Source of the DNA: Chrysomallon squamiferum
Lineage: Eukaryota; Animalia; Mollusca
Assembly (NCBI GenBank): GCA_012295275.1
Contig: CM022678.1
Span: 17,670,001 to 17,734,000, forward strand
Direction: 5' to 3'
DNA: 64,000 nt
This document shows, piece by piece, positions 4,953 to 50,427 of this stretch (the stretch's first letter is position 1; each line of letters opens with the position of its first letter). The position numbers and the translations under genes were made by a program. A model generated the notes under the pieces. That model was not told the origin of the DNA. It saw only the letters and a list, made by a program, of their open reading frames with translations, and did not search any database.

Positions 4953-4983
<31 letters not shown>

Positions 4984-10649: not shown

Positions 10650-11040
10650 GATTCTCTAACTTGTTGTTACAGCCTAGCTTTGTAAATATAATAATACTTA
10701 TAAAACTGATGATGATGATAATACAAAATATAATTATAATGATGATGATGATGATGATGATGATAATAAAAAATATATTATAATGATGATGATGATGATG
10801 ACTGACAATAATAATAATAATAATAATAACAAAAGTAGTAGCAGCATACAGAAATAACACAGTTGTATGCTGTAGTAGTTGTAGTGACAGCTTTTTCGGT
10901 AGTTGTAGTAGCAGAAGCAATAGTAGTAGTCATACTGATACTAATATATATATTTTTTTATTATTATAGTATAAAAGTATTATGTAGTAGCAGTAAAAAT
11001 AATTTAGATAATAAATGCTGGAAACATATCACTGCATTAC

Positions 11041-11849: not shown

Positions 11850-12175
11850 TTTCCTACCTACTTATAACAACCAGAATTACGATAAGAGATTAAAAACATT
11901 TGATAATATCTATCTCTTCTTGTCTCATGGGACAGACCGATGTTAATATTGACTTCCTAGTGTTACGGACTGAATGTTATTATTATTATTATTTTTAATT
12001 TGGATTTGCTTTTGAATAAACTTAGAAATCATACTGTTTGTTTCATTTAGTGCATTTTTAAAGACATGCATAACTACCTTTTCAATTATACCACAGTTCA
12101 AATAATATCGATTTTTCCTTTGGATGATTTACTGCGTTCCAGTTTCAGACAACAGACACATTCCAAGATGGCAGC
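11850..12175. promoter_or_regulatory. Probable bidirectional promoter shared by MTMR9 (-) and ZC2HC1A (+)
   Basis: Head-to-head genes. ETS-like ACTTCC near 11952; YY1-like CAAGATGGC overlapping the ZC2HC1A ATG (12164-12172); candidate MTMR9 first-exon donor GTAGGT near 11855-11861. Confidence 0.55.
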
Positions 12176-12471
12176 GAACGTAGGTAAACAAATTTATTCT
12201 CCGCTTAACATTATTTTAATGGTTATTTCCGAAAACACATTTTTATTGCTTGATTGAGATATAATGACTTTTGTCTTTCTCTGTTTGTATCTGAACATTT
12301 TTAGCATATTTATATTTTGTTTTTTAAAAACTCAAGTAAAAGTTTAGTTGTTAGGCTAGGCCATAAAAAACAATTGTTTGTGACGTTTATATGGGCGAAA
12401 ATTGAAACTTTTATATATTTTTAACACGTCCAAACCAGAACTATATATATATAGAGAGAGAGAGATATATA

Positions 12472-12505
<34 letters not shown>

Positions 12506-12652
12506 TGGTTTTGTTTTTGTATTATTACGCTGAAGATTTTTACCACAGTCAAAAGTTTTGATTCAATAAGTTTTTCATTATTTTGATTTTTTTAATATTT
12601 TGAGTTTTTAATATTTATTTCGTTAATTATTTTTATTGAGTTTACATACATT

Positions 12653-12696
<44 letters not shown>

Positions 12697-15600
12697 ATTA
12701 CTGTTAGCGTTATAAAATATTATTTTAATAAGTTCTTAATAAGTTACATTAATTAAATTATTTTAATAATTTTAATGAAATTTATAATTTGTTATCATAG
12801 CAACATAATAGGTAGAAATTAAAATATCAAAAAGTAATGCTGAAAATGAGGAACAATAATTATGTAATATTAATCAATGAAATAAAACAGATACAAATTT
12901 TTGAGTGTTATGAGGAATAGACATAATACCAAATTTATCTTTGGTAGATGCATTAAAAAATAGCTAGTTGTACTAATTTTAAATAATGTATATATTTTGA
13001 ATTTTCTTTCTTAATTAACTGTTTTATTTTAAACTGTTTGTTTCCTAAAGATTCAAAGTTTTCTAAATAATAATAATAATAAAAAAAAAAATAATAATAA
13101 CCTGCACTATTTCCTTAAAAAGTTAATTTACAGGTTTTTTTTATACTTGTGGCCATTTTGTTATGAATGCTGTTTTTTATTTATTTAATAAATCTATTTA
13201 TTTATTTATTGTATATACTGATTCATTAAACATTTCAGAAGGGTTGTGTTATTAAATAACAATCATAATAATCATAATAGTAATAAAATATTATTTTTCT
13301 TGGAGCAGATTAATAACGTAATTTTCAAAACTCATCTGTATTAATACATGTATAAACTTGTTTAGAAACATAACAATTAATATATTTTGCAAATTCAGCA
13401 AATTAAAAAATATAACAGTAACCAACAATAAATTGTGTTTTTTTAAGGAAGTTCATATTGTTTTTTATCTCACTGCCTATTATAATCAGTCTGAAATGAT
13501 AATTATTACAATATGTCTGCTTTCTTGACAAAAAAAAATGCCTGCAACAACACTAATAATTAATATGGATAGTAATAATTACTATATTTTTAACACTAGT
13601 AAATTAATAATTAAGAGGTCAAAAAATAGCATGAAAAAAAACAAAAAAAAACAACAACTTTTCTTTATAGTAACATTTTAAATTAACAACAGTTATTATA
13701 TATCACCATAGAAACACTTTTACAAATATGTGTGCTTCTCAGAATTTTCCTTAATTAGTAAGTTAAACTTTGTACAGTCCAGTTCAAACAAGAACAAAAA
13801 TGTAGAAAGAGTAAAAAAATACTGAACAGTTGATATTTTACTGTTTCTGTTTTTACTCCAAGTTGACTCACGTCTGAATGATGAATCGCTTACAGCAGCC
13901 GACTTCCTGTTTGTAATTGAGTTGTGAAAAGTCTATTTTTTATTTTCTTACTCCTTTATTATTTTATTTTTTTAATAAAAGTTTTTCTTTTTTTTCTTCT
14001 CTTGGAAATTAGATTTCTGTTTCAACATTTTAACTGAGTTAGTGTGAAATGTGCATTTTTTTTCTTTCTTTTTCTTTTTCTTTTTTGTTAAAAAGAAAAA
14101 TTACCTTCTGCTTCCCTTCTCTCAAATATTAAATATCTGTTCAGTTGCATTGTATATAGAATATACAGTGGTACATTGGATTTTGTGGGTTCATATAGTA
14201 TATAGTGTTTGTATGTACATGTGTATGTGTGTGTGTCTTTTAGGTGTGTGGAAAGAATACTAATATTATCATCATGGTAATTGTGTGTATTGCTACTTAA
14301 ATAAATTTAATTATATTACTTATTTTTGTTTACAGTTGCTAAGGTTGCATTGTTTCAAACACTGCATTCAGCAGTTACTTACAAGAAAATATTTGCTAAA
14401 CATTACCTAATGATCTTCACTAAATAAGTAATAATAATGCATGATAAATCAATTTACTGTTGGTATATCTTGTCACAAACACTTTAAACTGTACAGCTTA
14501 ATCAGACTCTTCTCACATGTGTTGTTCGTAGCTATGGATACGGTATAAACATAATTACTGAAGTTGTTGTAGATATTTATCTAGCGTAACTGTTTATCTT
14601 CCACACCCTCAGTTCAAACAAACAGTGGCAACCATCGAGCTTTTCCTAAAGAGATTTTTGAAACTTGTTTGATGTGCAGTGTACCCCGTATTCAAGCAGT
14701 TAACTGAACTGTAAAGAAACCTTTGCTGTTCTTTGTTATTGTGTACAATATAACTTACATGATTATATACACACATGCACTGCATTTGTTAATTAAACTG
14801 TTAACATTATTGTCAAGAAATCTTTGTGTTTCTTTGAGCGGAAGATTAAACCTCTGACGTTGTTGATAGGTCTTAGTTATTATGTATAATACGAGATTTA
14901 CATACATATATATATATATATACATTATGTACATTTATTTTACTGATTAATTAAAATACAATTAACATTAATGTAAAGAATGCTTTAAATTTCTTTATTC
15001 TTATGTGTAGTATAAAATACATATATGCATATTTATAGCACTACTTAATTAAATTGCAATTAGCATTATTGTAAAAACTGCTATAAATTTATTTATTCTC
15101 ATGTGTAATGTAAGATATATATATACATATTTATAGCACTACTTAATTAAACTTCAGTTAACATTATTGTAAAGAAACCTTTGAAGGTCTGTTTTTTTTT
15201 GATGTACAGTATATAGTGATAAATATTTAATGCACTGGTTAATTAAACTGTTAATTTGATTGTAAAGAAACTTTTCTTGTTATGTACAATGTACAACATA
15301 AGAAATTTTGCACTTGTTAATTACACTTAAAATGTTTTTGTAAAGAAAGCTTTGAAGTTCTTTGCTTTTTATGTGCAATATAAGATGCATGTAGCTGTTA
15401 GCTGATGTAAAATTAGTGTTGTAAAGAAATCTTTTTGACAACAATGTTAACTACAGTAAAATATTTCATACATTATTAATGTGAAAAAACATTTCTGAGT
15501 AGCTTTGATGTTGATAATAAAATATTTCTTATGAATTATTCCTGAGGTTAATTAACCTTAATGTTAAAAAGAGATTCAATAACAAATTTTGATTTTGGCC

Positions 15601-16080
15601 TTAAATAAAAAAACACAAGAGGTTAATAACATGAAATTTTGATCAGTTATGGACAATCTCCGTTTTATTAAACATGTAAAATTTGAGAAAGTTTCAAAAC
15701 GTGTTTTTTGAGATATGAGATGTCAAAGGTCAGTGTATTTTTGGGTTGTTTTGGGGTTGTTTGTGTTTGTTTTGATATATCAGTATCAGTTTAAATACTT
15801 TCTGTTGAATCCCATGATCCTTATGAGCTGATAACAAGCATTAAATTGGTCTAACAGTTTTTTTTATATCTGAAAGTGAACTGCAGGTAAATACTGAGCT
15901 GTATTACTTTAATGTTACAGAACTGATAACCTTAGTGGAGAAGTTAATATTGATTGATGGTAGAAATGACTTTAGAATAATCTGATTTCAATGTTGTAAG
16001 TGTATTTATGTTAATATTGACCAATGGTAGAAATGTGAAAGTCAAATATAGATAAATCTGAAGAAATAAGACAGTCTTTT

Positions 16081-16118
<38 letters not shown>

Positions 16119-18450
16119 GAAACAGAAACACACTCATATTTCCATACATACATACACAATCACACACATATACACTTAACTATGAGCTCTCAAAATAAAA
16201 ATCAGGCAAATACAGGCACATTCATGTTTATTTATTTTTTTGTATAATGATATAACCAATAAAATGATAATATAAAATATATATACATACAGACACCCAC
16301 ACACTCCACACACAAAATCTCACCTTCATGGACACACACACACAAAATCTCTAATTGGCTTTATCTAAACCATTCCAATAATGAATTGCAAAAAAAAAAA
16401 AGAAAAAAAAATAGACTACAAATGTAGCCGCAGGCTGAAACATCTTTTAATAATTAAACACATTCAATTTTATCCATTCATGTTAGGCCACACCAAATTA
16501 CAATCACATTGTGCGGACTGGTTACAAGTACACTCGTACTTCTTCCTGCAGTGGTCATGGTTGGTTGGATGGCTGCAAGTGTAACACTTAATGGTTTCCT
16601 TGGAAAATGAATATACCACACTGGCTGAATTATTGATCAAATGTTTTCCAGCACACGATGGCTTCCAATAAATTGTTTCATTCAGTTTAATTACTTTTTT
16701 TCTTACCTGATGGCTTAATGAGTTTCTCCTTGGACACATTAAATGTTGATCAGAATAAATTAACTGGAAAGTGAAAGGTATTAATATTCCAGGCTTGAAG
16801 AAATTAATTTGTGTCGTAACTCAAGAGCAAAGGTTAAAATGAAAAATGGTCATTTTGGAAGTATGTAAGATGTAAGATATGTTTATATGGAGTTTTTATT
16901 ATTTTTTTATTTTTTTGTTTATTTTTATTATTTTTGTTAATTTTTTTTTATTTTTTGGCTCCATCTAGTCTTGTTGCTTGTAAACTGAACTTCAGAAGTT
17001 CTGGGATTCATAATATATGTTATATGTCATCTGTCTAGTTGTCATTTTATACTTACATTCATGCATCACTCACAGACATTGCATATGCAAATATATATAA
17101 ATTTGCTTTCCTCAGGCACATATACATATACAGATAAATACATGCATAAAATATACAGAAACACACACACACACTAATACATATATTCGTGCATATATAC
17201 ACACATACATACAAACAAACTCAGTTGTCAAATATATATAATAATACATGCATCTATAAATATTTGTATAAACTTGCTTACATCAGCAAAGGATGAGACA
17301 GGACATTGTAAATGAAAGCAGTGAAAGTTGATGGAGTTTGAAGAGTCATTCAGTTCAGAGAGATGTTTATGTTTTATTCATAGCAGCAAGCTTGAAGACT
17401 ACAGTCAGATACATCCCAGCTAGCACTCACAGTGCCAGATCAATTTTTACCTCCACCAGTCAATTGTTTATTCATACATTCTCTTTGTTCTCAGAAAAAA
17501 AAATGTTGTTTACCTATATTTTCTTTAATGTCAACCATCGATCAACATTTTTCCCTTTTAATTTAATATTTCACACACACACACATAGATGTATACAGTT
17601 TCGTGGCATGTTTTTTAAAACTTTTTTCTTTTCTTTCAGTTGTATGAATTTTAAAAACAAAATATGACATGATTTTTTCACATAGAGATGCATTACATGT
17701 TAAAGTTACACTAAATGACACTAAATAAGTCCAGTCATGTTACAGTTCACTTTGTCAGCCACATTGTACTGATTTATAACAGGAATAATTTCTGTCCTGT
17801 CATGTTTTCATCTGTCTAGACCCATGCACATATTTTATCTGGTTTTTTTTGTCATAATATAACATTGTCAATTGTTAATTTTTTTTTTTTCTGTTACATT
17901 AACCCAGTTCACATTATATACATCATTTTAAAAAAGTGTTTCAGTTTGTTATTTTTAATTTTTTTTTATTAATTTTATTTTATTATCTTTTTTTTTTTTT
18001 TTTTTTAATTTTTTTTTTTTTTTTTTTTTTTTATTTTTTTTTTTTTTTTTTTTTTATTTATTTATTTATTTATTTTTTTTTTTTAAATTTCTTTATTTAT
18101 TTCTTCATTATTTCAGCTCTTCAATTGTACCCTTGCAAAATCTGTGGACGAAAATTTGTCCAGGAATCTTTGGTAAGTACAAGTAATATCTTTACCCACA
18201 ACTGATTTATCAAACGCTGTTGTATGTTTTCAAGTCACTGGGTAGTATTTAATATTTCTAAAACATGTTGCTTTAAATAACTTGCCTCATTTTCGAAGCA
18301 TTAAATTTCAGTGATTATTAATCAAAATGTTTAAAGCAAAATTTATTATTATTATATTGTTAGTACAACAACTAAAACTATGTTACTACCACTGCTGCAA
18401 CTACTACTACCACTGCTACCATTGCCATTACTACTTCTATCACTACAACA

Positions 18451-18489
<39 letters not shown>

Positions 18490-21400
18490 TTTGTCATTAT
18501 TATTATTATTATTATTATTGCATTATTATTATTATTGTTATTGTTATTGTTATATTATTATTATTATTATTGTTATTATTATTGTATTATTATCATTATT
18601 GTTGTTATATTATTATTATTGTTATTATTGTATTGTTATTGTATTAATATCATTATTATATTATTGTTATTACAATTGTTATTATTGTTGTTATTATTGT
18701 TTTTATTATTATTGTTGTTATTATTATTGTTATTGTTATTGTTATTATTATTATTGTTATTGTTATTATTATTGTTATTATTGTTATGATTATTTAGGAC
18801 AAGCATGTGAAGGCCTGTGCGAAGGTCAGTAAACCGAGGAAAGTGTTTGACTCAGCAAAACAGCGAGTGACTGAAGACCTTCCACTGAGACAAATCAAAC
18901 AGGCACAGAAAAAGGTGTGTATGAGTTAGTCTGAGTTTCAGTGAGTTAGTTTGAGTTTCAGTGAGTTGAGATTGAGTATACATGAGTTTTAATGACTGAG
19001 TGTGTGTGTGTTTGTGTGTATATGAATTATAATGAATTTTAATGAGTTAACATTGAGTGCATATGAGTTTCAGTGAGTAAAGATTGAGTATATGGGAGCT
19101 TTAATGACTGAGAGTGTGTGTGTAAAATAATATGAGTTATAATGAATTAAGATTGAGTACATATGAGTTTTAGTGAGTTAAGATTGAGCATACGATGTTA
19201 ATATTGCATGAGTAAGATTAAGTATTTATGAGTTTCAGTGAGTTAAGATCTAGTATACAAAAAAATATTCAGAGATTTTAAATTAATGAATTAAGGCATT
19301 TGGGTATTTTAATAAAAGGATATGAGTTTAAATGAATGAATGTAAGTTTTATATATTTTTTCATGAGTGAATAAATTTATATCAGTTTTGTCTGAGTTCT
19401 AATGAATTATAACTTAATAAATATTCATGAGTTTGTGTGAGTTGGTGTATGTAAATGAGGTTGTTTATATAAATGGATAAATGGAGATAAATAAGGTTAT
19501 TAATGTAAATATGTTTATATGAGTTTATGAGTGTAAATGTGTTTGTTTATGTTTGTGTAGAGTGTAGACAGTTTTATGAGTTTAGAAGTAGACAGGTGTA
19601 TACAAGTTAATGGAGTAGATGAGTGTCTGAATTTATTTCAGTTTGTATGAACTGAAATGAGTTAATGTGATGTTCTGTTCAGTATTTGATTAAATTTACA
19701 GTTTGTGTGAGTTTTTAATGAGCTGTTTATATGCAGATTTGAGTCAATTATTATTAAAGATTGCAGACAATTGTACGAGTTTTGAGTAAATTAATATGAG
19801 TTATGTGAACCAGATTAAAATGGTTTTGTATGTTGACACTGCTTGTACAGAAAAAATAAATACAGTATGTAAAAGTAAATATTACAGATAATATTTAAAT
19901 TTTAATAAATTTATACTTGCAGGAATTCAGTATACAAATATCAGTAAAAGCAATAAAATATTTGATTTTGGTATAAATTAATCAAATTTATGTTACAGGC
20001 AAAAATTATACACATTTATTACATGTATTACAATTAAAAATTATTAGAATTTATTACAGGTACAAATTATTAGAATATATGTTACAGGTAAAAATGTATA
20101 GAATTTATATTACAGGTTAAAATGTTAGAATTTATGTTACAGGTTAAATTCATTCATGTTTATAATGTAGATATTAATTATTATATATATATAGATAGAT
20201 AGTTCTTACAAAACTAATATAAAAAAATGAATGAATTAATGTTTAATGACATCCCATCAAAAAAATATATATATCAGCTATTGGATGTTAGCATAAATAA
20301 AATTTATTGTAAAGGTAAAATTAGTTAGTATTAATGACATAGGTTAAAAAAAAAAATCTAAATGATTTGCAACAGGTAAAACAAATATTTAATGTTTAAT
20401 GTTTATAACTGATGTAAATTGTTAATGTTTGCATACAGTTGTTATACTTCATAACACAGACAAAATTTATTAATGCTTATCTTACAGGTAAAATTAGGTT
20501 AGTATTAATAGTTCAGGTAAAATTATTTCCATTTGTAATACAGGTGAAAATGATTGACGTTAGTAATATGGATAAAATGTATTAGTATTAACAGATAAAA
20601 ACTAATGAAAATTACAACGTAAATCATTAGTATTAACAGGTTAAAAATTGTTTGTATTAATAGATTAAACTGTTAGTATGTAGTCTGTAGAACAATAAAA
20701 TTATTATTCTATACTGACAGGTAAGAATTACTTTAGTAATTGAATAAAATTTACAAAACTTTCTCATGTTTATATTACAGGTAAAATTACATTAGTGTTA
20801 ATAGTAAGGTATAAATTATCAGTATTAATAATTAAAAGTTATAAGTATTATGAGAAAAAAAATCTGTTAAAGATTCAGGTATAAATTTTTAGTATTTACA
20901 TAACATAATAATTATTATTCCATATCAGACAGGTAAAAATTAGTGTCCAACATGAATTAATATTTAAACAGGAGTTTTCCGAATCTTGGCCGCATTTCAA
21001 GCACAGACACAAAAGAACATGTTTTTTTTCAAAACTGTGTGCTTTGTTTTAATGGCATTTTGATTTCAAATGTGTGTTTTTGAATTAATATTTAGAGTCC
21101 TTTTATTTAAAAAAATACTTAAAAACATTTCATTTCAGAATGATAAAAAAGATGTGAGTATAAAATTATTTGGCCCTGATGCACAAGACAATCTTTATCA
21201 GTTCTAGACTGCAAGGATTTTTTTCTATTTTAATGTTTCAAAAATGCATGTAATAGAAAGAAAAAAAGGCTGTTTGTATGTATGTATGAATATGTAAAGC
21301 ATGATCTTTAAAGACTGCATCCCTGAAAATGTTGTCTCACAGTTTTTTAATAGTTGTTAGGTGTCTCTGTTATTCACATAATTGTTATAATTATTATTAT

Positions 21401-24400
21401 TACTATTTTAAAGCACAGATATTGTTTGTTGTTAACAGGGAATGTATTCATTCATCTGTCACTCTGTTAATCCATTTGTTTTTCTGTCACTCACAATTCA
21501 TCACAACCAATCACAATTTGCATGAATCTTTTTTTCTCAAACTCAACAAAGGAGGTGGAAATTTTTGTGTTTTGCTTTTCAGCCAGAATAAAACACTGAA
21601 GTCTTCAGTGATGATTATTACAAATAACAAAGATGATAATTTAGTAATTAAATAGCTGTATTATGAATATAATCTTAGATCGATTTTAATAAACCTACCT
21701 GTATTTGTATCACAGTGTTAAAACAGATGAAAGTGGAAATATTAGTAAATGGATAATACAGAATTTAATATTTAATAATTATAATTATGACCTTTATAAA
21801 CATTTTTTATAAATAGGCAGGTCCTTCCCAGTGGTTTTAAGCAAATGTAAGTGGTGATAAGTGAATAGGTATATAACTTAATGTTTAATTAGTATAATTA
21901 AGATCTTTCTAAACATTCTTTTAGCAAAGGATTAAATAAATTTATATTTAAATTTTAATAAGTTTGCAGGAATTCAGTAAACAAATATCTGTAAAGTCAA
22001 TAAAATATTTGTAGTGATTTCTAGAAATAACTACTTGATTTTGGTGAATGGTTTAGTTATAAATATATTCTGTGTAGTACTTTTTATTAATACTTGAGAT
22101 ATTTTATTAAATTAATAAATTTATAATTAATTTAATGTGGCTGTTTATTCTGCATTTTTTTAAATTAATCTATAATTATATTAATTAGAATCAGACTGGG
22201 TTTTTGGGTGGGGGTGTTTTTTTTTTTGAGGTGGGTTTAACTAGGTGACCAGAAAAACCCCATTAAAATAATAATTATTATTATTATAAGAACTCTTCAG
22301 TTCCTTACTTGGTTGTCTCCTCTTGTCATTAACATAATGATTTAATTAATCGTTATATACATGCATGACTGAATACTAGTTTTCTTCGCTGCTTTGTGTA
22401 TCTTCTCTTTACCAATGGCTTTGGAAGAGTTTTACCTATTTTTTTTTTTTTTTTTTAACCTTAAAAATAACAAAATAATGCATGCATTCTGCTGTGTACC
22501 TTTTGGCATTTGGTTGTAGTGGACAGTGCTTTTGCTTAATTCTACTCCTACCAGAGGAGCTATAGACTAAACTCTTAATGAAAGGATTTTATAAATAGTT
22601 CTTAGGAGCGACTGTAGATAGATCTCTATAGAAGGCGATTTTGTAAATAGTTCTACTTAGCAGGAGGGGTGTAGGTGCCTCCTTAGAAGATGATACAGAA
22701 GACACTCCTTAGATAATGTAGATAGTTCTCTTAGGAGATGCAGTACATGGATATCTTTAGGGCATATTGTAGATAATTTTCTTTGGGAGATATAGATAGT
22801 TTACTTTGGGATGAGAGAGATTGTATATAAGTACCCTTTAACAAGAGAGGTTGTTAATTGTTTTTCTAAGGAGAAGAGAGAGTAGATAGTTCTGCTGAGG
22901 AGGAGATGTTGTAGATGGTTCTTCTTAAATGTAGATAGATCTCTTTAGGAGGAGAAATTGTAGATAGTTCTTAGAAGGAGCATTTTTAGTTTAAAACTTC
23001 TTAGGAGGAGAAATTACAGATAGTATTCCATAGGAAACAGATGTTAAAGATAGATTATTCCTTTGAAGCGATTTAAATTTAAAACTTCTTAGGAGGAGAA
23101 ATTACAGATAGTATTCCATAGAAAACAGATGTTAAAGATAGATTATTCCTTTGAAGAGATTTAAATTGTTAATGAGTCATCTTTAGCAGAAAAAAAATTA
23201 GAGATAAATTACAAAAGTATATGGGTAATATATTATTATATATGAAATTACATAGATGTATTGGAGAGAATGTTATTTATGAACTGCATGAAATTTTATT
23301 CATAAAATTATAAGGTGAAAACACAGGTAGATTCATATAGGTGAAAGGACATAAGTAAAAGGTGTATATAGGTGAAATTATTCTTGTGAAGTTGTTTGTA
23401 AGTAATGGCATATGTGGCTCATGTGTCACAGGTAAAATCTGTGTGCAGTGAAGTGGAACAGGTGAGATAAAATCAGACAGGTGAAACCTGGTTTAATTCT
23501 ATGTATGAGAAATGACACAGGTAAAACTGTAAATAGGTATAATGCTGATATAATGAAATAAAGTCAACTGTTTAAATGAAACAAAACAGGTAAAAATTGT
23601 GTATTGAAATGAAATAGGTGTAATTCTATATAGTGAAATGAAACAAGTAGAACTGTTTAAATGAACTAAAAAACAGGTAAAAATTAAGTATTGAAATGAA
23701 ACAGGTAAAGTTGTAGATAAATGAAATGATACAGGTACAATTACATCTTATAAAGAATAAGGTAAAAGATAAAAAAAAAAAAAGTTAAAAAAAAACACAA
23801 AAAAACCTGATCTTACAGGTGACCCAATAACACTAAATAAAAACAAAAAAAACAAGATGAAAACGTGAAAAAAACAAAAAAAAACATAACAAAATAAAAA
23901 ATTTAAATAATCAACACTGGATCATGGACCAGAAATCTTCAGATGATGAAAAAAAAGCAAAAAACAGCCTCAGTGAGAACATTTTTGTGTAAAACAAAGT
24001 TTTGTGTTTGACGTGAGTGATGTTCTCTCTCTTGTTCTCTGCAGGTTGTGTCAGCCCCGAAGAGCAACTGGCGCGCCAAGCATGAGGACTTCATAAACAG
24101 CATTCGCGCCGCCCGCGACATCACCAAGGCCCAGAGTGAGGGCCGCCCACTGCCCCCTCCCCCACCCCCCTCAATTAATCCAGGTAAGCTGAGACAGTTT
24201 TGATTTCGTTTGCGATACATAAACTGAACCGGGTAGAACTGGTTTCATTTTAGTGTTATATTTATATATTTTGTTAATGATGTATTTGTTGGTTTGTTTA
24301 TTTTTATTTTATTTATTTATTTATTAATTTATTTATTTACTATAATGGTAATATTAGCTAGCTCTTGTTTATTATTGTTACTTTATTATTAGTGGTAGTA

Positions 24401-24720
24401 GTAGTAGTAGTAGTAGTAGTAGAATTAGTATTATCAGCATTATCATCATCATGGTTACTATGATTGTTATTGTTATTACTATTATTGTTATTATTATCGT
24501 CATTGTCATTTTATTATAACTGTTATCATTAACATTGCTACTGTTATTATAATTATCATTATCATCATCATCATCACCATCTTCATCATCATCATCATCA
24601 TTATTATTATTATTATTATTATCATATATCATTATTATTATCATCATAATCATCATTATATACTATTATTATTATTATCATTATATCATTATTATTATCA
24701 TCACCATAATCATTATATAC

Positions 24721-24765
<45 letters not shown>

Positions 24766-26459
24766 ATTATTATTATCATATTATCATAATTATTATCATT
24801 ATTGTTGTTATTATTACTATTATTACTGATGTTATTACTGATGTTATTACTGATGTTGTTACTGGTGTTGTTACTGATGTTACTGATGTTGTTACTGTTA
24901 TTACTGATGTTACTGATGTTATTACTGTTATTACTGATGTTACTGATGTTGTTACTGATGTTGTTACTGATGTTGTTACTCTTACTGACAGACTATGTGC
25001 AGTGCCCGTACTGTTCTCGCCGGTTCAATGAGAAGGCGGCAGAGCGACACATCCCGTTCTGCAAGGAGCAGAGTCTGAAGAAAGGCACCATACCACGCCC
25101 CAACCCTGCCGCTGTTGCCAAGCAACAAATCAGGACGCAGGTTTGTTCCGTTTTCAGTTTGTAACATGACTAGTTGAAGACAAAGTCATTGAAACTTTAC
25201 AAGTTTATCACTGGTGATTAAAACAGAAGAAATCTAAATATATTGTACATATCTTGAAATTTAAGTTTTGTTGTTGTTGTTTTTTTGGGGGCATAGGGCT
25301 AATTTGTTCATTATTTTTAATATAAAAATGTATTGTTTGTCCAATCTTTATTAATGATAAAGTATAAAAAGAAAAGAGAACAGTTTAAAAAAAAGTTTGA
25401 TTATGTCGGGGTTTTTTTCTTCTATAGTTATTATATGATTGCAAAGAATGCAAACCAGTTTGATGTAACATTTTTTTTCTAGTGGCAGAAAACAAACACA
25501 GTTTTAATAACAAATAAACATTTCATTTCATTTCAAAAGAAAAATTAATTCTGTATGCTTATATTAACCTAAAATACTTTTAGTTGAGAAATTCTATCAA
25601 TTTTGACAATTTTAAATGCCAAATGTTCTTTAAACCTTTTCTTTTTTTTTTTCTACCCACACCAGTAATTAATTTAATATGAAAAATAGCAAGTGAATTA
25701 TGTGTAACAATTGTGGATTGGTTGTTAAATTTAATTTTGTGTTGATAATGTTTAGTCTGACTCTAAGGATGGAGTAAGTATTTTTAGATAGTTTTTGTTG
25801 TCAGAGAGCATAATACACTGAAAAAATCATCTTTCTTCTATTTATTTGTTTATTTATTTATTTATTTATTTCGGCTGTTATCACAACATTGTGGTGAAAT
25901 GCTTCTATGGGGTTTTATTTAGCAAAATGGCATTGGTTTTTTTAAGTTGCCATGACAACATTGTGTATGATCTGTTTAAATTTTACTTATTAATTACATA
26001 CATAATAATTTACAATCAGTTATAGGTAATGCTTAGTGTATTATATTTAGTTACCATAGCAATATCTGTAAAAGTTTTTTTGTTTCGTACATGTACTGTT
26101 ATTTTTATTTTATTTTATTTTATTATTTTTTTATTATTATTATTGTTATGCAGTGACACTGATTAAATAAGAATACTTAGGAATTTTGTTAAAATGCATG
26201 GATTAATTTTAGATACTGTGTATGTTGTTGATTCTAGGTGTTTTGTACACACTTTCACTTGTCACAACAGCTGATAGGTGTTTGTATATTTTTTCTTCTC
26301 AGCTAGTTTTAGTTTAGTTTTAAGGTTTGGTGAATCGTAGATATTTACATCATATTTTATGCATGTTGTCTACGCAATCAATGTTTATTAATTATCAGAT
26401 GCAGAAAGAATGTGTTGTGTGTGTGTGTGTTTATGTGTCTGTATGTTTGTATCTGTGTA

Positions 26460-26497
<38 letters not shown>

Positions 26498-26790
26498 TGA
26501 ATTTAAACATATGTACATACATTTAACATCTACGATGGATAATTATTGAACTATTTATTTCATTTTATTAATATACTTTTTTCTTCTTCTTCTTTTCTAG
26601 TTTTCTTTTCCAGCCTTCAAGTTTACTTACCTAATTGTTTTTAATTAATATAATTTAAAATATAAGACAGATCTCTATATTAAACAATTGTTTTTTGTTG
26701 TTTTTTTAATGTTACTTTATTTGTTCTGTGATAACCCAGACTTACTTGTATTTATCATTAAATATATTCATAGATAGATGGATAGGTATA

Positions 26791-26822
<32 letters not shown>

Positions 26823-29398
26823 ATTTTTTTTTTTCTGCAGTACCAGGCACCGAGGCCTAGGGTGGCCAGTAACACCAGTGGAGGGACTCCCATGGCCTCA
26901 TCCTCAGGGAATCGGAGCGGGGTCAGCCGCACCCCGGCTGCTGGCATGGTAACGACTTTGTTTAGTTTTACTTAAAAACTGTGCATTATTAAGCAGTCCT
27001 GTCAGTGGGAGGGTGCATATATACAAAAACTCTTTGCTGAGTTTTATTAATGTTTACGACACTGAAAATTGTTTTGAGTGACACATTAAATAAAACTTAA
27101 AATTTTTTATTTATTTTAAATCTGACAGCAGCAGGCTGTAGTTATACTGCAGATCTGAGTCCCTGAATCCAACTAACTTCTCAGTCTTATTCTCTGATTT
27201 CTTTCAGTTTACTCACAGTTTCATTTGTCATTTGTACCCAGTATCTCTTGCTCACCTGTTTTTTTCATTACTCACTGCCTATTTCTTTCCTTTATTTATT
27301 TTGTTGACTCTCCAAGTCTCTGAGTGCTCTGCTTTTTAACTCTCCAGTTTCTGCTCCTCATCTGTTTTGTTTCTAATAATGATTTTGCTCTCTTCATTCT
27401 GTTCTCATTTTATTCATTGTCCCATTTCATTTGCTCTCCAAATTCTGTTCCCATCTTGTTTGCTCTCCACATTCTGTTCCCATCTTGTTTGCTCTCCACA
27501 TTCTGTTTCCTTTTTGTTATTCATTTTGCTATTTGTTATTTTGCTCTTCACTTTGTCTGCTTTCCCCATTTTTTTTTTTTCTGTTTTTGTTCTCTCCTAA
27601 TTGTTATTATTTCAGTTTACCCTGTTTATCATTCTATTTATCATTTTGCTCTCTGTTTTTCATATTTATATTTGCTGGCAGATATATTTTACTCTCAACA
27701 TTTCCTTCCCATTTCACTCGTACTCACCTATTCATAAATTTTGATTTTCCACATTTCAGAATCTCATTTTTACACATTTTCTATTTCCCATTTAATTCAC
27801 TCTCCTAATAACAACGATGCCGTCCACATTTCTTTTTTTATTTCATTTTACTCTCCTACTTACGTTGCTCTCCACATTTCTGTTTCTATTTCATTTTACT
27901 CTCCTGCTTACGTTGCTCTCCACAATTCTGTTTCTATTTCATTTTACTCTCCTACTTACGTTGCTCTCCACATTTCGGTTTCCCGTGATTTACTCACTCT
28001 CCTGTTTCTGGTTGTGCTCCAGGAGTCTCGTTACAGTGATTTTGAGTCTGGTGCGAGTTACGTGTCGCCAGTACCGCCAGCCGATGGTCAGCAGTTGAGT
28101 TCTGGCAAGGACTCAGCGTCCAGTCGAATACCTAAAAAAGAAAAGGGACAAAACAAATTAAAAAAAATGTCGTCTTTCCACATGAGGTTTGAGCCTTTCA
28201 GAGAACCCAGAGTTTTGAAAAAATTCATTTTGAATTGACTCTGAATTCATTTTGAATTACTTTGAATTACGTTTTGAATGACTCTGAATTCATTTTGAAT
28301 GTCTTTGAATTACATTTTGAATGACTTTGAAATCATTTTGAATTATGTTGAATTCCGTTTTGCTGATTTTTGAGTTATTGTTGAATGATTCTAAATTGCG
28401 TTTGGATCATTTTAAATTAATTTGTGACGGTTTTAAATTATGTTTTTGAAAATTTTTGTAAGTTATCTTAAAAAGTTATTATTATTATTATTATTATTAG
28501 ATTATTATTACATATTTGTTATTGTTGTTGTTTTTCCTAATTTCATGTTTTCAACTGAGTTGATTCTGATGGTGTTATTTTCTGGGTTTATTTGTTATGT
28601 TTTTTTTACAATTTTTCCTGTTTCTGTAAAGATAATTACTAAAAGATATTCACATAATTAAATGTCACAAAGTTTCATAAAGTGAAAAGTCACATTATAT
28701 TTTTAACACAGTCAGACAGTTAATTATTATTATTAACTGGTTATGATCAATTGCTTAAAACTGTCCTCAGCAACAAGAGGTTCCAAGATCAGTTCTCCTC
28801 TGTAGACTGCTTGTCTGTCTGTCTGTCTGTTATAAATGTCTGTTCTAAATGATAAAGAGCAGTGTTTGCTTCTCTCTATAAGAGAAAGTTTTGATAAAAG
28901 ATTCCCTGTTGCTGTGTTTTAAGAAAGTTAATCTTCCAGTCCTGTGATAAGTTTAAATAATTAAGCAGAGAGAACAAATCTAGTTTATTTAACTGTTTTG
29001 TTTGTTAGCTGATAGGGTTTTTTAATTTTGGGGGGATTTTTCTCCAGTGATTATTTACTCTTGTTATTTTATTTAAATATCTTTATTAATATTTTTGTAT
29101 ATTTCAACAGACTATTATCAAAACACATTTGATTTAATTATTCAGCTTGATATAAACAGTTTCTCTCTCTCTCCTTATATTTCTTTCTCTATTTCAGTAT
29201 GTTTCAAAGAATTCATTCAGTACATTCATTTATTCCTCCAATTAGGATTTATTTTAATCAGTAGCTCTATGTACTAGAATTATTATTAGTAAATAATTTT
29301 ACTGTTATGGTGGAAACTCTTCAAAGTGACAGAAATTCATTCTTTTTTCCCATTCCAGACTCTTCAAATAAACCATTTTACATTTCTTTCATTCTTTC

Positions 29399-29494
<96 letters not shown>

Positions 29495-31154
29495 TATAAT
29501 TTTTATAAATAATTTATTTTTTTATTTATTCATTTTTTTAATAGGGTGCACCATTTTTCATCAAAAAAAATTCTTTAGCAGTGAGAATGTCATTTAATAA
29601 ATAAATAAATTATAAGATAAAATAAAATTAAAGTTCATTACTTCATGAGAACAAATTGCATTTCAGAAATCAACAAAACCAACTGCTGCTGTAAGTACTG
29701 GGCTGCAGAGTTATCTCCCCTTTACCTTGTATATTACCTCCCCTTTGTACCGTCTTGGTGTATGTGTATTGTTTTTCCTGTTTTTCCTGTTGTTGTCTGT
29801 CAATATACATAAACCTTATATTGCTGCTTTAATGTCAGAACTGTTTCCCCTGTTTACCCTCGTTTTTGTGTATATTTTCTTTTGTTGTAAGCTTAAGTAT
29901 ATTTAATTTATATTGGATAATAAACCTTACCACATGGACACGGTTCTATAATTATCTTCCTTTATTGTATGAATTATATTCCCTGTATACCTTCATCAGT
30001 ATATTTAAAATATTATTTTTAATGTGACCTAAACCTTGTTAATGTTATTCTGCATTTATATATAGTCCTATTAAATCTTTTTTAATTCCTTTATTTAAAA
30101 TATTTTTACCTTTATATATAGTTATTATCTTTATTTTACATAATTTATGTTGTATGATAAACCTTGTATTGCTGCTTTGTGTACGGTGTTGTGTATTTAT
30201 CTCCCCTTTACTGTATAGATTACCTCCCCTGTGTACCCTCTTCAGTGTACCTTTACTGTTTTCCATTTTCTTGTTACTTATTTTTGAATTCATTGAACTA
30301 AGTGTTGATTTTGAGAATGTTGATAATATTGCTGTTGATGCTGATTATCAACAGTTGATTCTTACTAGTCGACATATTGATGTTTTGATCTGTAGTAAAC
30401 TGTTATAAAGCAATAGGAACTTTTTTATGGATTTAAACTATTTTGATTGATGCAATTAATTCATTTATTGATGTGATCATTATAAATATTGATAAGAATG
30501 TTGATATTATTAAAACTGTTCCAAGTTGATGATAAATGTAAAGGTTGATAATGGGGTTGTTGATGGAAAGAAAGTTGATGTTTTTAATTCTATTATTCAT
30601 GTAAAACAAGCAGAAATGATGATAAATGTAAAGGAAACTGAAGTTATTTAAATATAGCAGTTGATAATAATGTTGAGAAATGTGAAGATTATTAACAAAT
30701 ATTATGGATGTTAATGTTATTAAATATAGCAGTTGACAAAACTAGTAAATTTAAATTTAAAGATTAATAAGAAGAATTGATGACATAGATTTTAAGAAAA
30801 TTGATATTTTTAAGTATAGCAGTTGTTGGTAAGTGGAAATTTTGATAATGAGAATTCTGGGAGTTGATGTTATTGAGTACAAAAGTTGATGATGTTGATA
30901 ATTGTTACATTTCAGACATCATCAAAGAAACCAGTAAGTATGGAGGCTGTTGCCTAGCAACCTAATATTTATATATATTACCTGCTTTTGTACCTGTATA
31001 CAGAGAGAGCTTTAGTAATATCTTATCTCAATGCTTCAATTGTCATTTTAACATTGCTGCATATACTTTCCTTGTAATCTGAGTGAGTGTGTGTTGTTTT
31101 ACATACTCCTTTGCTTCAGTCACTTTTTGTTATTATGGAATTTTGTTTATATGA

Positions 31155-31203
<49 letters not shown>

Positions 31204-31835
31204 CTTTGTCTGTTTTCTAATGTAGTGGACATTTGTTTTGTTTATGTTTATATATATATTTATGTACATATGTATTTCTGTTCCAAAGTGTGTTCATGTA
31301 GTGTACATATTTTCTAAATGTATAGGTGTATTTATGTCTGTTTGTCTGGCTGTGTGTTTTTATTTCCTTTTATTGTATTTATTTACTTCATTTATCCTGT
31401 TAAAATGTTTGTATTTTGTTTAGTATCTGTTTGCATGTGCTGTCTTTGTATGTATGTATGTGTGTGTGTGTGTGTGTGTGTTTTGGGTAGATGTGTAGGT
31501 GTGTGTTGCATGTTTTGGATAGGTGTGTGTGTGTGTGTATGTGTGTGTTTTAAGAGAGTATCAGTTTGTTGGTGTGTTTGTTCTGTTTGTTTTTTTATGT
31601 ATTTATTTATATGCTTCAGCTGCCATTTTAACATCAAACTGTGCCTTCTGTAGCAGTGTCTGTTCAGCTGTATGTATTAACAAATATAATCAGTTCTTCT
31701 AAACCTCAGATTCGTACATGCTGCTCTGGGTGAAGTATCTGACATCTGTTTTATATAATGTATTTGTTTATGACATTCATTTTGTATTTTATAATTAATT
31801 GTTTATTTACTGCTTACTATTATCATTATTTCTGC

Positions 31836-31872
<37 letters not shown>

Positions 31873-33742
31873 TATTGTCCAATATTTTCTAAAAATACTT
31901 GTTACAAAATAAAAAATACACACACACATAGAATAAAAGACAGCACAAACACATACACACATTTAAAACATATACAATACAACACAAACACACTTTAAGC
32001 ATATACAACAAACAACAGATGTGAGTTGTCTAATATCTTAGCTCTTGTCATTATTCAAAAGGTATTTAACCCACTGTAAAGATCTAACTTTGATAAACTA
32101 CCTTGTTGAAACAGAGTAACAGAGCCCAGTAATGTATATCACTTTGTGTGAATTTGAGTACATGTGTTTGTCTTTTATCTGCCTCTAATCAAGATTCAGG
32201 TCCATTAAACACACACACAGATTAATCACAGATATGTCAGACTGTTACAGGTGTTCATGTCTGGATTGTTACACTTGCTAAAGTGACCACCTGTGTTTAG
32301 GGACCTCTTTTTGGTCATGCTGATCTATTCTAAACAACCATCTGTCAATAAAGACCACATTCGTAATGCTCCAGATATTCTAATAAACTTGCCCATATTA
32401 AACCATTACCTGTTCTGAGAGGACACTTTTTTTTTAAATGAAAAGATGTCTGTCTAAAAGAGACCTTGCTGCTAGGTGAAATCTGTAATGATGGAGGTAT
32501 TTATTTATTTATTTATTTATTTATTTACTTATTTATTTGTTTGTTTGTTTGTTTGTTTATTTATTTATTGAGGCAATATATTTAAAAAGTTATTCTACTG
32601 ACCTACTGCATTATTTCACATACCTTCCTTTATATTTTATTTATAGTTAATTATTTTGTTGGTGTTGTTGTTGTTATTATTATTGTTATTTTTAATGTTC
32701 AGAAATGGCTATATTTTATATTACTGCTTTTCAGACATCATCTAAAAAGCCAGTAAGTATGGGAGGACACATGACATCCCTGTCATTTTTACCTTTTGTT
32801 GTTGTCAGAACATTTCCTTTTGGTGTCTCAGTTTTAACCTTGCTTGAGTTTCATACATTTCATACATTGTCTGAATGTTACCCTGATTATATGAACTGTA
32901 CCCTAATAGGATAAAAAAAATAGCATTTTTCTTTCAATTTACCCTGATAGTATGTATTTCTCATTTCTGTTTGAATTGTTGACCTTGGCTGTTATATTCC
33001 GAAGCATGAATTTTCCTGTGCTTTGAATTTTGAGTCTGTCTGCATATGTTGTTTGAATTTGTCTGTATTGTCTGATCCAGTTAATGTCAGATCCTGCATG
33101 GTGACCTTTACCAATTTAATGTCAGATCCTGTACTGTGAGCTAAACCTAGTTAATGTCAGATCTTGCATGTAACCTCTACAATATTAATGTCAGATCCTA
33201 TAATGTGACCTAAACCTTGTTAATGTTATTCTGCATGTGACCTCTAGAATATTAATGTTAGATCCAGTCCTATGACCTAAATCCTTTTAATGTCAGATCC
33301 TGCATGCAAGCTCTACAATGTTAATATGGTATCCTGTACTGTGACCTTGACCCTGTTATCCTTTATGGTGACCCCTGCCAATTTAATGTTCAGTCCTGTA
33401 ATTTTACTTCTCTGTGTTATTGTCAGATCCTACTAAATTTATATCAGATTTGTACAAGTTAGCATTAAGTCCTTGACATTGACCTCCGTATTAGTGTCAG
33501 ATCAGTGTCATGACCTATGCATGTAATAGCTTTCTGAAACTTTGACCTAGAGCAGAAATAATGTCATGTTAATGTCAGTGCAGTATAATTATGTGAACTC
33601 TGTGAAAATAGATCAGATCTGCTTAAATTAAAAACATTGTAGCCAACATGTAAAATCTTTTATTTTATTTCTATTTTTATTCTTCTTTTTATTTACTTTT
33701 CTTATTAATTTGTCTTATTCTTCTTCTTTTTTTAATCATTTC

Positions 33743-33775
<33 letters not shown>

Positions 33776-34319
33776 GTGTTATTTTTGTTTATTATATTTA
33801 TTTGTTTGTTTATTATAGTACTTTATTTATTTATTTATTTATTTATTTGTTTGTTTTTTTTATTTTTATTTTTATTTTTGGCGTACTGAAATCTCCTGCC
33901 TACTGAATCTTTCAGAGAAACTACTTTTAGTTTGTCCTCTAGGGTTTCAGGTAAGACACAGTTTTAAAACACAAACATTCTGTTGTCAAGGTAACACCAG
34001 TTTCTTACAGATCAACATTGAGACATTTTTAAATTAGCTGCTAATTAAATCTGACTGGATTGTTAATTTTCAGACATCATCAAAAACTGCTGTAAGTACA
34101 CCTGTATGTGTGTCTGTCAGCACACATTTTGTTTTCACTGGTCTCGTAGTTGTCAGTGTTTTTTGTTTCTTTGTTAGATTATGTCTCATGATCTGTATGC
34201 ATGTTAAACATCGCTTGTTGGTCTGTAGGGAATAGAGAGCAGGTTTAGTCAACATTTTTTTTACTTTGTTGTTTTTATAATGTTTGAAAATTTTGATAAA
34301 AACTTAATCAGTGTAGTGT

Positions 34320-34366
<47 letters not shown>

Positions 34367-34496
34367 CTGCAAGTATGCATGAGTACATACATCCATACAA
34401 GCATGTGTTACAGTAATATTTAAAAAATTTAAAATTTATTTTTAATTTTAATTTTTTTTTTTTTTCATTTTTGTCTTATTCTCCACATTGCTGATC

Positions 34497-34546
<50 letters not shown>

Positions 34547-35409
34547 TTTTTTATTATTATTTTTTTTTTATGGTTTTTTTAATCACAAAATTCTTAGCTA
34601 TTTTTCACAAGCTTTCAGTAGATTTCTTACAAACCTCATTAATTAACCTTTACCTGTAGCTGCATGTAACCCTTCAGTGTACATTGTTGTAGTTGTGATA
34701 GTTTTTATCTTTGACCAGTTTCCATGAAAAGCACTAAAAGTCACAGGAACTGGGTGAAACATTTTCTAATATTTTAGAAATCGAGGCAATTTTTTTTTTT
34801 TTTTTTTAATTTTTTTAATTATTATATTTTGCTTTGGTAATTTGTATGTGGTTTTTATTTTTAGCTTTGACAATACTTATTTTTACAGACAGTTTTCTTG
34901 TTGAAAGTGAATTCAGTTTTTAAATAAATAATTTAATAAAGAAAATATGAAGAAAACGTAAGAATAAAAGTCTGTTGGTGTATATGAAATAGATATTACT
35001 TTATGAAAATTATGACATTTAAAATTGTATAAATATCAGTGTTAATGTTTATAAATTTTCTGTTGACATATTAAAATTCAAATCATATAATATTTACTTT
35101 AATGCTGTTATCAGAATGAAGTCTGTTTTTTGTTCATTGTCTAGTGTTTTGTTATATTTCACATTTATTAATCCTATTTATAAAAATAAATCTTTTAACT
35201 TTTTTTTTTTTTGCTTATGTTATTTTAAGTTTTCAGTTTCTGATTACAATTAAAAAAAATAGAACAATAGCTTTTAGAACAAATTTAACACAGATTGAGA
35301 ACTTCTTATACAAAAGTCACAAATAAAAAAAAAAAAAAAAAACTCTGAAATTGTAAATTCTTTTCAGTAGCCTCAACATTGATAGTTAACCTTTCTGTGT
35401 TCAGAACAC

Positions 35410-35466
<57 letters not shown>

Positions 35467-35775
35467 TGCCTTTTTTTTCCATTCAATCAAGAAATTATTA
35501 AAAATGATTTATAAATTACTGAGAGAAAATAAAGATAAAGAAATAAAGAAATAATTAATCAATACTAATAGTCGACTCATTTACATGAGTTACTGAATAT
35601 TTCTGATTAATAATAATAATTATTATTATTAGTAGTAGTAGTAGTAGAAGTAGTAGTAGTAGTAGCAGTAGTAGTAGTAGGAGTAGTAGTAGTAGTAGTA
35701 GAGTAAGAAGTAGTAGTAGTAGTAATAGTAGAAATAGTAGCAGTAGCAGTAGTAGTAGCAGTAGTAGTAGAAGGA

Positions 35776-35811
<36 letters not shown>

Positions 35812-35832
35812 AAAAGTAGTAGTAGTAGTAGT

Positions 35833-35871
<39 letters not shown>

Positions 35872-36199
35872 AAGTAGTAGAGAAGTAGTAGTAAGAGTAG
35901 ATGTAGAAGTAGTAGCAGTAGTAGTAGTAGTAGTAGTATTTATAACAAATAGTCGACGCCTGTTTATGTTTTTGAATTTCTCTCTCTCTAGGGAAGGCGC
36001 TAGGAACACTCTGTCGCCCATAGATGGACAGTCCCCTTCAAGAAGCAAGCGAACAAAATCAGACAGCATGATCAAAACTCCCACCGCACAGAACATCACA
36101 TCACTAGCGAAATTCTGTCACAACTGTGGCACCAGATACTATGTTGCCACAGCCAAGTTTTGTTGTGAATGTGGGATTGGTCGAATAGGGATTTCCTGA
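12168..36199 (+). CDS. ZC2HC1A: Zinc finger C2HC domain-containing protein 1A-like (about 318 aa via exon 28023-28186)
   Basis: Exons: 12168-12183, 18117-18172, 18798-18914, 24045-24183, 24992-25140, 26841-26948, 28023-28186, 35992-36199 (957 nt, in frame). Translation MAANVALQLYPCKICGRKF..KHVKAC..RKVFDSAKQR, SNWRAKHEDFI..IRAAR, PPPPPPSINPDYVQCPYCSRRFNEKAAERHIPFC and C-terminal FCHNCGTRY..AKFCCECGI matches the ZC2HC1A family architecture. Confidence 0.9.
16470..16763 (-). CDS. Candidate nested antisense Cys-rich exons (16763-16707 and 16598-16470) in ZC2HC1A intron 1
   Basis: ctttcactttccag|57-nt open exon|gtaaga, a 108-nt intron, then ttttccaag|ETIKCYTCSHPTNHDHCRKKYECTCNQSAQCDC...*. High-complexity island; no upstream exon identified. 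Confidence 0.3.
   Translation of the reverse strand, partial: LIYSDQHLMCPRRNSLSHQVRKKVIKLNETIYWKPSCAGKHLINNSASVVYSFSKETIKCYTCSHPTNHDHCRKKYECTCNQSAQCDCNLVWPNMNG
18385..18795. repeat. Compound (CTA)n/(TAT)n/(TGT)n microsatellite abutting ZC2HC1A exon-3 acceptor
   Basis: Direct inspection. Confidence 0.95.
18915..19810 (+). repeat. Degenerate TGAGT/GTGAGTT array immediately after ZC2HC1A exon 3 donor
   Basis: Dozens of ATGAGTT, GTGAGTT and TTGAGT words. Confidence 0.75.
19990..20940 (+). repeat. Degenerate ~28-nt array with ACAGGTAAAA core
   Basis: More than a dozen (T)ACAGGT words followed by A-rich sequence. Confidence 0.75.
21139..21153 (+). CDS. Candidate 15-nt in-frame microexon of ZC2HC1A (NDKKD)
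   Basis: catttcag|AATGATAAAAAAGAT|gtgagt. Symmetric phase 0, matching flanking exons 3 and 4; no stop. Confidence 0.6.
22550..23200 (+). repeat. Degenerate AGGAG/GTAGATAG array including an ~89-nt exact-like duplication (about 22990 and 23079)
   Basis: Repeated TTAGGAGGAGA...GTAGATAGTTCT words. Confidence 0.7.
23310..23825 (+). repeat. Second degenerate ACAGGT(A/G)AAA array
   Basis: Repeated TGAAATGAAACAGGTAAAA-like units. Confidence 0.7.
24822..24990 (+). repeat. (TTACTGATG[TTG])n array abutting ZC2HC1A exon-5 acceptor
   Basis: About 12 TACTGA words ending in CTTACTGACAG|. Confidence 0.85.
27820..27985 (+). repeat. 48-nt tandem repeat x3 upstream of exon 28023
   Basis: TTTCATTTTACTCTCCTACTTACGTTGCTCTCCACATTTCTGTTTCTA units. 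Confidence 0.85.
29359..29375 (+). pseudogene. Decayed microexon paralogue (no donor site)
   Basis: ttccag|ACTCTTCAAATAAACCA aligns 15/18 with the TSSKKP microexon, but has a 1-nt deletion and is followed by TT rather than GT. Confidence 0.45.
29667..29690 (+). CDS. Candidate 24-nt microexon of ZC2HC1A (KSTKPTAA)
   Basis: ttgcatttcag|AAATCAACAAAACCAACTGCTGCT|gtaagt. Consensus splice sites; TGC just upstream of the 3' splice site. Confidence 0.65.
30916..30933 (+). CDS. Candidate 18-nt microexon of ZC2HC1A (TSSKKP, copy 1)
   Basis: catttcag|ACATCATCAAAGAAACCA|gtaagt. Confidence 0.72.
32735..32752 (+). CDS. Candidate 18-nt microexon of ZC2HC1A (TSSKKP, copy 2)
   Basis: tgcttttcag|ACATCATCTAAAAAGCCA|gtaagt. 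Differs from copy 1 only at three synonymous third positions. Confidence 0.72.
33080..33570 (+). repeat. Degenerate TTAATGTCAGATCC...TGACCT array between microexons
   Basis: Period of about 35 nt, more than 10 copies. Confidence 0.75.
33943..33950 (+). CDS. Candidate 8-nt phase 0-to-2 microexon (GF+R) or recursive splice site
   Basis: tgtcctctag|GGTTTCAG|gtaaga. Restores the phase required by the terminal exon. Confidence 0.45.
34074..34091 (+). CDS. Candidate 18-nt microexon of ZC2HC1A (TSSKTA)
   Basis: aattttcag|ACATCATCAAAAACTGCT|gtaagt. Confidence 0.7.
34229..34242 (+). CDS. Candidate 14-nt phase 0-to-2 microexon (GIES+R)
   Basis: ggtctgtag|GGAATAGAGAGCAG|gtttag. Joins the phase-0 microexons in frame to the phase-2 terminal exon; the donor resembles other AG|gttt donors in this gene. 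Confidence 0.35.
35630..35938. repeat. Long (AGT)n microsatellite before ZC2HC1A terminal exon
   Basis: Direct inspection. Confidence 0.95.

Positions 36200-47540: not shown

Positions 47541-47574
<34 letters not shown>

Positions 47575-50331: not shown

Positions 50332-50427
<96 letters not shown>

Follow-up and report, generated by a model that had tools for sequence, protein, structure and literature searches.

We examined a 64,000-nucleotide (nt) window from the mollusc Chrysomallon squamiferum (GenBank assembly GCA_012295275.1, contig CM022678.1, positions 17,670,001 to 17,734,000, forward strand; coordinates below count from the first letter of this window). It contains a plus-strand gene at 12168..36199 that we identify, from its predicted domains and homologues, as ZC2HC1A, the gene of the microtubule regulator Janusein. 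RNA contigs connect its sixth exon to its last coding exon by three spliced routes. Inclusion of a 164-nt cassette exon (hereafter, the large exon) gives a predicted protein of 318 amino acids (aa) with a C-terminal zinc ribbon, whereas a microexon route and a route through a 35-nt exon give predicted proteins of 212 aa (ending GRR-stop) and 199 aa (ending RNYF-stop) without it. In our preferred reading, which we hold to be quite probable, the last exon is read in two frames, probably as a choice, regulated by tissue, between forms that bind microtubules strongly and weakly.

The routes come from assembled contigs of four runs recorded as RNA (X1 to X4), all belonging to a single study, with five runs covering part of the region. 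Ten joints are listed, comprising six GT..AG exon joints of the ZC2HC1A gene, three with other ends and one intronic GT..AT; all joints of the three routes are GT..AG. In X1, one contig (depth 17.3) runs from exon 6 through 28023-28186 to the acceptor at 35992 and keeps the zinc ribbon, and another (depth 42.8) runs through 33916-33950 to the same acceptor. Their summed depth is near that of the flanking contigs (52 and 58), contig depth being a poor measure of expression. X2, X3 and X4 each provide one contig in which exon 6 is followed by 29667-29690, 30916-30933 and 35992, with a predicted tail of KSTKPTAA-TSSKKP-GRR-stop. Long and short spliced forms are both expressed within this one study. 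The gaps in RNA cover at 30912-31235 and 32532-32855 are uninformative, as 18-nt pieces cannot be placed alone. Because two unspliced contigs, in X1 and X3, span 34000-34251, the libraries contain pre-mRNA or DNA.

The effect of each route follows from the frame in which it reaches the last exon. An earlier first-pass annotation, made from the letters alone, had stated that exon 6 ends in phase 0, that the last exon must be entered in phase 2 for the zinc ribbon, and that the large exon, running from phase 0 to phase 2, restores this frame by itself. All three statements hold: exons 1-6 sum to phase 0, and the large exon is 164 nt long and flanked by AG/GT. It is also the only observed route that keeps the zinc ribbon. 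The microexon route enters the last exon in phase 0 and meets a stop within its first 12 nt, so that skipping the large exon moves the stop codon at the cost of three recoded residues. Reading frame, in other words, sets whether the zinc ribbon is made. The domain itself has 14 columns that are invariant across molluscs and fish; its Pfam matches are weak and all below the cut-off, and the last exon alone, as a homologue query, returned nothing at E 0.001 in what is a weak search.

The same contrast between a long and a short form is seen in the 15 RefSeq models of the nearest named relative, the peltospirid snail Gigantopelta aegis. Five include a large exon and the zinc ribbon and no microexon. 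The other 10 end in GRR-stop, none with a zinc ribbon, and eight of these carry one to three phase-0 microexons rich in Lys, Thr and Ser. The large exons of the two snails are 28% identical (E 7e-7, pairwise).

What frame does not set is the separation of the large exon from the microexons. The first-pass annotation had argued that the microexons would be misread after the large exon and that the reading frame thereby enforces mutually exclusive routes. It was right that alternative routes exist and that frame decides the fate of the zinc ribbon. However, the microexons hold no stop in the frame that follows the large exon, and the large exon combined with any microexon keeps the zinc ribbon; because this combination stays in frame, frame cannot enforce the exclusion. 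The check that the annotation had suggested, on co-occurrence, did come out as it expected: the large exon and microexons are found together in none of the five spliced paths from exon 6 to the last exon and in 0/15 Gigantopelta models. Splicing regulators, rather than frame, would then keep the two apart, and we infer a regulated exon choice because the samples split one against three and the Gigantopelta models split cleanly.

The first-pass annotation had also proposed that the microexon path is closed by one of two tiny 0-to-2 exons, GGTTTCAG at 33943-33950 or GGAATAGAGAGCAG at 34229-34242, and had treated loss of the zinc ribbon as the result of a wrong combination. Both candidates are present with AG/GT ends. 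In the contigs of the four runs, which lose rare variants, no RNA joint occurs at 33943, 34229-34242, 32735 or 34074, and inclusion of the 8- or 14-nt exon, whose absence the annotation had itself named as telling against its model, is not seen. Contigs show presence rather than absence, and a rare 8-nt variant could escape them. The microexons are instead joined directly to the last exon in phase 0 in three of the four runs, and what that route normally makes is a protein lacking the zinc ribbon.

It is very unlikely, in our judgment, that the zinc-ribbon frame of microexon transcripts is restored by exactly one exon of 8 or 14 nt. This intron offers 303 AG..GT candidates between 3 and 60 nt long that are free of stops and run from phase 0 to phase 2; we scored them with hand-set consensus weights rather than a trained model. 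By this score the 8-nt candidate comes out on top, and its donor, the strongest of the intron, is truly used. Such an arrangement would also have company in the gene family, since in the Dreissena model P0068 a short segment of ~20 nt, running from phase 0 to phase 2, leads into the zinc-ribbon frame and, as modelled, is a precedent for a small frame-restoring exon in another lineage. Yet the RNA pairs donor 33950 with acceptor 33916, 27 nt upstream of the proposed one, and the 8-nt exon is the 3' end of the 35-nt exon. The 14-nt candidate scores at background, being equalled or exceeded by 28 of the 303 (itself counted), and is probably not an exon. These observations, the direct joins in three runs and the absence of any Gigantopelta model (0/15) with both a microexon and the zinc ribbon all speak against switch exons. 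A 20-nt AG..GT candidate at 31710-31729, likewise stop-free and 0-to-2 with fair splice sites, ranks second, above the 14-nt one; it has no RNA joint and was rejected.

The strong donor at 33950 is common to three in-register acceptors, one used (33916) and two unseen (33931 and 33943). Use of the innermost, 33943, would give an 8-nt exon free of stops; the predicted protein of 266 aa would keep the zinc ribbon and have a short linker. We doubt that this variant is made even at a minor level in some tissue, and it would not rescue switch exons as the main rule.

The 35-nt exon carries in-frame TAGs at 33928 and 33940. Its length runs from phase 0 to phase 2, so readthrough of both would land in the zinc-ribbon frame, an outcome that we find scarcely credible: the two TAGs are successive and form the ends of in-register alternative acceptors, there is no sign of an altered code in this animal, and the short route itself stops at TAG.

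A broader alternative holds that function lies with the large-exon form alone, the short forms being products of unproductive splicing by which the protein level is adjusted. Skipping of non-triplet exons is reported often to serve decay (PMC13247117), and the 35-nt exon with its two in-frame stops has no counterpart among the Gigantopelta models. On the other hand, the short route is the sole form assembled in three of the four runs, the synonymous constraint on the microexons in phase 0 makes no sense unless that route is translated, GRR-stop is conserved, and vertebrates retain a separate gene, ZC2HC1B, without the domain. As a general account we consider unproductive splicing quite unlikely; it stays more plausible for the 35-nt exon alone. 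Under our preferred reading of two translated frames, and given the 50-nt rule of nonsense-mediated decay, the short mRNAs may escape decay, their stops lying either within the last exon or just 20 nt ahead of the final junction. These positions are compatible with such escape, and short forms dominate the contigs.

Neural microexons dependent on eMIC/Srrm are up to 27 nt long, and the four microexon sites in this intron (24, 18, 18 and 18 nt) fall within that size and are all multiples of three. They have their acceptor and first codons in common; because the search pattern was derived from the four sites themselves, the chance value of 0.14 obtained with it must be read as post hoc. To judge from their letters, the three 18-nt microexons are genuine paralogues. 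The two TSSKKP copies differ at three positions, all third-position synonymous in phase 0, which bears out the earlier view that the microexons are selected in that phase. That view overlooked the fourth, 24-nt paralogue (29667-29690), the very one spliced in three of the four runs. In the short form only, these Lys/Ser/Thr-rich pieces may lengthen and charge a disordered tail. A TGC lies 10 nt upstream (-10) of two of the four microexons, but also near ordinary exons, and is too weak to name a regulator; UGC near the 3' splice site is a described feature of eMIC targets (PMC8797185). Our literature search found no paper linking microexons, molluscs and Srrm. Inclusion of all exons at once was considered and fails on a phase-1 stop in 32735. 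Gigantopelta models P0108-P0114 and P0137 carry extra microexons after exon 3 (SGKD) and exon 5 (PNPKEA, ANPKDG), for which a strict scan of introns 3 and 5 found no strong counterparts here, and one Gigantopelta model skips the helix and second finger.

The long/short design appears, from the sequences compared, to be common to other molluscs. We asked whether each short tail can be a shifted reading of a long form, using an any-site shuffle control (n=1000). The tail GRTGR-stop of Dreissena fits at a single site, the exact point at which its two long models come together (183 and 175 of 1000 shuffles); GRYGR-stop of Mytilus also fits at one, in a comparison of two species (31/1000 shuffles give any site), as does GYQSRR-stop of Littorina (7/1000). 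The Littorina site ends R-AGAR, resembling R-EGAR in the Chrysomallon gene and R-AGAK in Gigantopelta, whose own tail is too short for the test (671/1000). Models from Biomphalaria, Bradybaena and Candidula end GRRF-stop or GRRN-stop, with no long partner among the sequences compared.

Several points weigh against our interpretation. The RNA comes from one study with four runs, as contigs only, and the exclusion between the large exon and microexons is not proven by it; regulation would rest on a one-against-three split of the samples, and the microexons at 32735 and 34074 were never found spliced. RefSeq XP models are predictions whose exon combinations need not equal full-length transcripts. 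In the two-frame test, the control is weak for Dreissena and uninformative for Gigantopelta, the Mytilus pair spans two species, and for Littorina an automatic model may simply have put one exon in the wrong frame. The 11 oyster sequences compared were long forms without exception, so the short form cannot be claimed for every mollusc. The functional reading rests on a human preprint, with the short and long proteins predicted from RNA. Finally, the large exon contains an SxIP-like SRIP motif that has no counterpart in the Gigantopelta long form; S/TxI/LP motifs lie downstream of the second finger in 7/12 homologues checked, Gigantopelta being without one. We give SRIP little weight because the Janusein preprint places EB contact in the N-terminal helix.

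What is nevertheless shown is the set of three spliced routes, each with its frame and stop, together with a matching long/short design in the Gigantopelta models; work on human Janusein suggests what the two forms may do. That preprint reports that removing the intrinsically disordered region (IDR) or the C-terminal domain (CTD) markedly cut microtubule binding, that the N-terminal domain (NTD) alone disassembles microtubules and cooperates with EB, and that IDR-CTD binds, bundles and stabilizes them (bioRxiv 10.64898/2026.10.26.761828). The snail protein has the same plan of two C2HC fingers around a helix, a disordered middle and a C-terminal zinc-ribbon domain. Whereas the truncations in the preprint are artificial, the snail gene has a natural form without the C-terminal domain, resembling the CTD deletion. 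By transfer from those truncations, the short form would keep the destabilizing N-terminal module and lose most lattice binding and stabilizing activity. ZC2HC1A is reported to be ciliary in human cells and worms (CilioGenics, PMC11317154). The terms "isoform", "splic" and "ZC2HC1B" have 0 occurrences in the main text of the Janusein preprint, whose supplements could hold alignments of other forms, and our literature search, outside which most subscription journals fall, found no paper on splice forms of ZC2HC1A.

A vertebrate parallel to the short form is ZC2HC1B, likewise ~200-290 aa with both fingers and no C-terminal zinc ribbon, but encoded by a gene of its own instead of arising by splicing. 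Among 50 vertebrate rows picked by name from 120 listed (108-345 aa only, most partial or fragment rows excluded), the zinc ribbon is present in 0/20 of ZC2HC1B and 25/30 of ZC2HC1A; of the five ZC2HC1A rows without it, one carries a variant of the domain, two stop partway through it, one is partial and one groups with ZC2HC1B. The ZC2HC1B rows form a single clade (99/99) in a 38-row tree that is midpoint-rooted, places nematodes among molluscs through long branches and was not used for the order of events. No function for ZC2HC1B was found among the matches listed of papers naming it.

The splicing mechanism itself is a common, already described class. "Alternative C-terminal length isoforms" number 136 events in C. 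elegans, with dhhc-4 as an example (Athavudeen et al. 2026, PMC13247117), and share with the snail gene a non-triplet cassette that moves the stop with little recoding and yields long and truncated C-termini. By comparison with the class as described there, inclusion gives the long form in the snail, a folded conserved domain is toggled instead of a disordered tail, a short form can be reached in two distinct ways, and a tandem array of microexons serves the short route only. Human dual-coding regions, reported from 1296 genes (Goubert et al. 2026, PMC13160074), similarly involve a short two-frame region in one exon with an early stop and C-terminal loss; the snail stretch differs from those described in being only 12 nt long, with a stop that appears conserved across gastropods, perhaps bivalves. 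The features of the gene are collected in the table below. In a classical mutually exclusive cluster of the Dscam type, one and only one of a set of homologous exons is retained. The snail gene is not such a cluster: there is no homology between its large exon and the microexons, two of the microexons are spliced into the same contig, and Gigantopelta models have 0-3.

Features of the ZC2HC1A gene in the window and the basis for each
Feature	Coordinates	Strand	Basis
Exon 1, coding part (ATG, 16 nt)	12168..12183	+	Sequence; N-terminus agrees with Gigantopelta models
Exon 2, first C2HC zinc finger	18117..18172	+	PF13913 E 4.4e-6, 26.7 bits vs cut-off 27, partial domain
Exon 3	18798..18914	+	Sequence and homology
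Exon 4, conserved helix and proline run	24045..24183	+	Sequence and homology
Exon 5, second C2HC zinc finger	24992..25140	+	PF13913 E 4e-8 (above cut-off); 70% identity to Gigantopelta
Exon 6, phase 0 end, donor common to all routes	26841..26948	+	RNA joints from 26948, 4/4 runs
Large non-triplet cassette exon, 164 nt, phase 0 to 2	28023..28186	+	Both joints in one X1 contig
24-nt microexon KSTKPTAA, phase 0	29667..29690	+	Spliced in X2, X3, X4; paralogous 3' splice site and first codons
18-nt microexon TSSKKP copy 1	30916..30933	+	Exact 18 letters between 29690 and 35992 in X2, X3, X4
18-nt microexon TSSKKP copy 2 (predicted)	32735..32752	+	3 synonymous differences from copy 1; AG/GTAAGT ends; unseen in RNA
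35-nt exon with in-frame stops (RNYF-stop)	33916..33950	+	Both joints in one 93-nt X1 contig
18-nt microexon TSSKTA (predicted)	34074..34091	+	Paralogous; like Gigantopelta TTTKTT; only unspliced in RNA
Proposed 14-nt switch exon	34229..34242	+	Background score, no joint
Dual-frame start of last exon: GRR-stop in phase 0, (R)EGAR in phase 2	35992..36003	+	Translation; both entry frames in RNA; GRR-stop kept in Gigantopelta
Last coding exon; double CxxC zinc ribbon ~36113-36175, stop 36197-36199	35992..36199	+	61% identity to Gigantopelta

The assignment to ZC2HC1A is based on the PF13913 fingers in exons 2 and 5 and the C-terminal double-CxxC domain (Pfam search, alignment). The two N-terminal C2HC fingers that mark the family are both present, that of exon 2 as a partial match just below the cut-off, and the C-terminal FCxxCG...FCxxCG domain is present only in the large-exon form; microtubule binding with EB-dependent catastrophe is a family trait known from the human protein (bioRxiv 10.64898/2026.10.26.761828). 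All 101 named hits of the homologue search belong to the ZC2HC1A/Janusein family or to unnamed gene models. Junctions upstream of exon 6 are placed by sequence, homology and contig-length arithmetic. The main upstream contig of X1, at 513 nt, equals exons 3-6 exactly by such arithmetic and hints at a branch just before exon 3 (18798), either alternative splicing or an allele.

Elsewhere in the window, a divergent neighbour gene occupies ~370-10660 on the minus strand, with a likely start ~1.5 kb from the ZC2HC1A ATG; one of its exons has a weak myotubularin-like phosphatase match (PF06602, E 0.0013, below cut-off). Also on the minus strand, 43795-51328 holds exons of an Arg/Ser-repeat-rich gene, with RS dipeptides and SPR/SPK repeats at 50630-51328 and an RGG-like stretch near 44100; it has no Pfam match. 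A degenerate intronic repeat at 32923-33525, matched by unspliced contigs of several runs at 90-97% identity, is probably a dispersed repeat or an allele.

The gene is a compact case in which a large exon and a microexon array are kept on separate routes though frame does not force it. The toggled domain corresponds to the microtubule-binding and stabilizing part of human Janusein, whose modules oppose each other, and the natural forms with and without the C-terminal module are ready-made test constructs. We tentatively suggest, as a possibility we rate well below even, that a single molluscan gene, by way of an ancient dual-frame exon, makes both a long Janusein (stabilizer and destabilizer) and a short, destabilizer-dominated one whose tail is tuned by duplicated basic microexons, that vertebrates hold the same two products in ZC2HC1A and ZC2HC1B, and that the short form may be a natural microtubule-catastrophe factor. 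If this is true, the short form would predict the function of ZC2HC1B.

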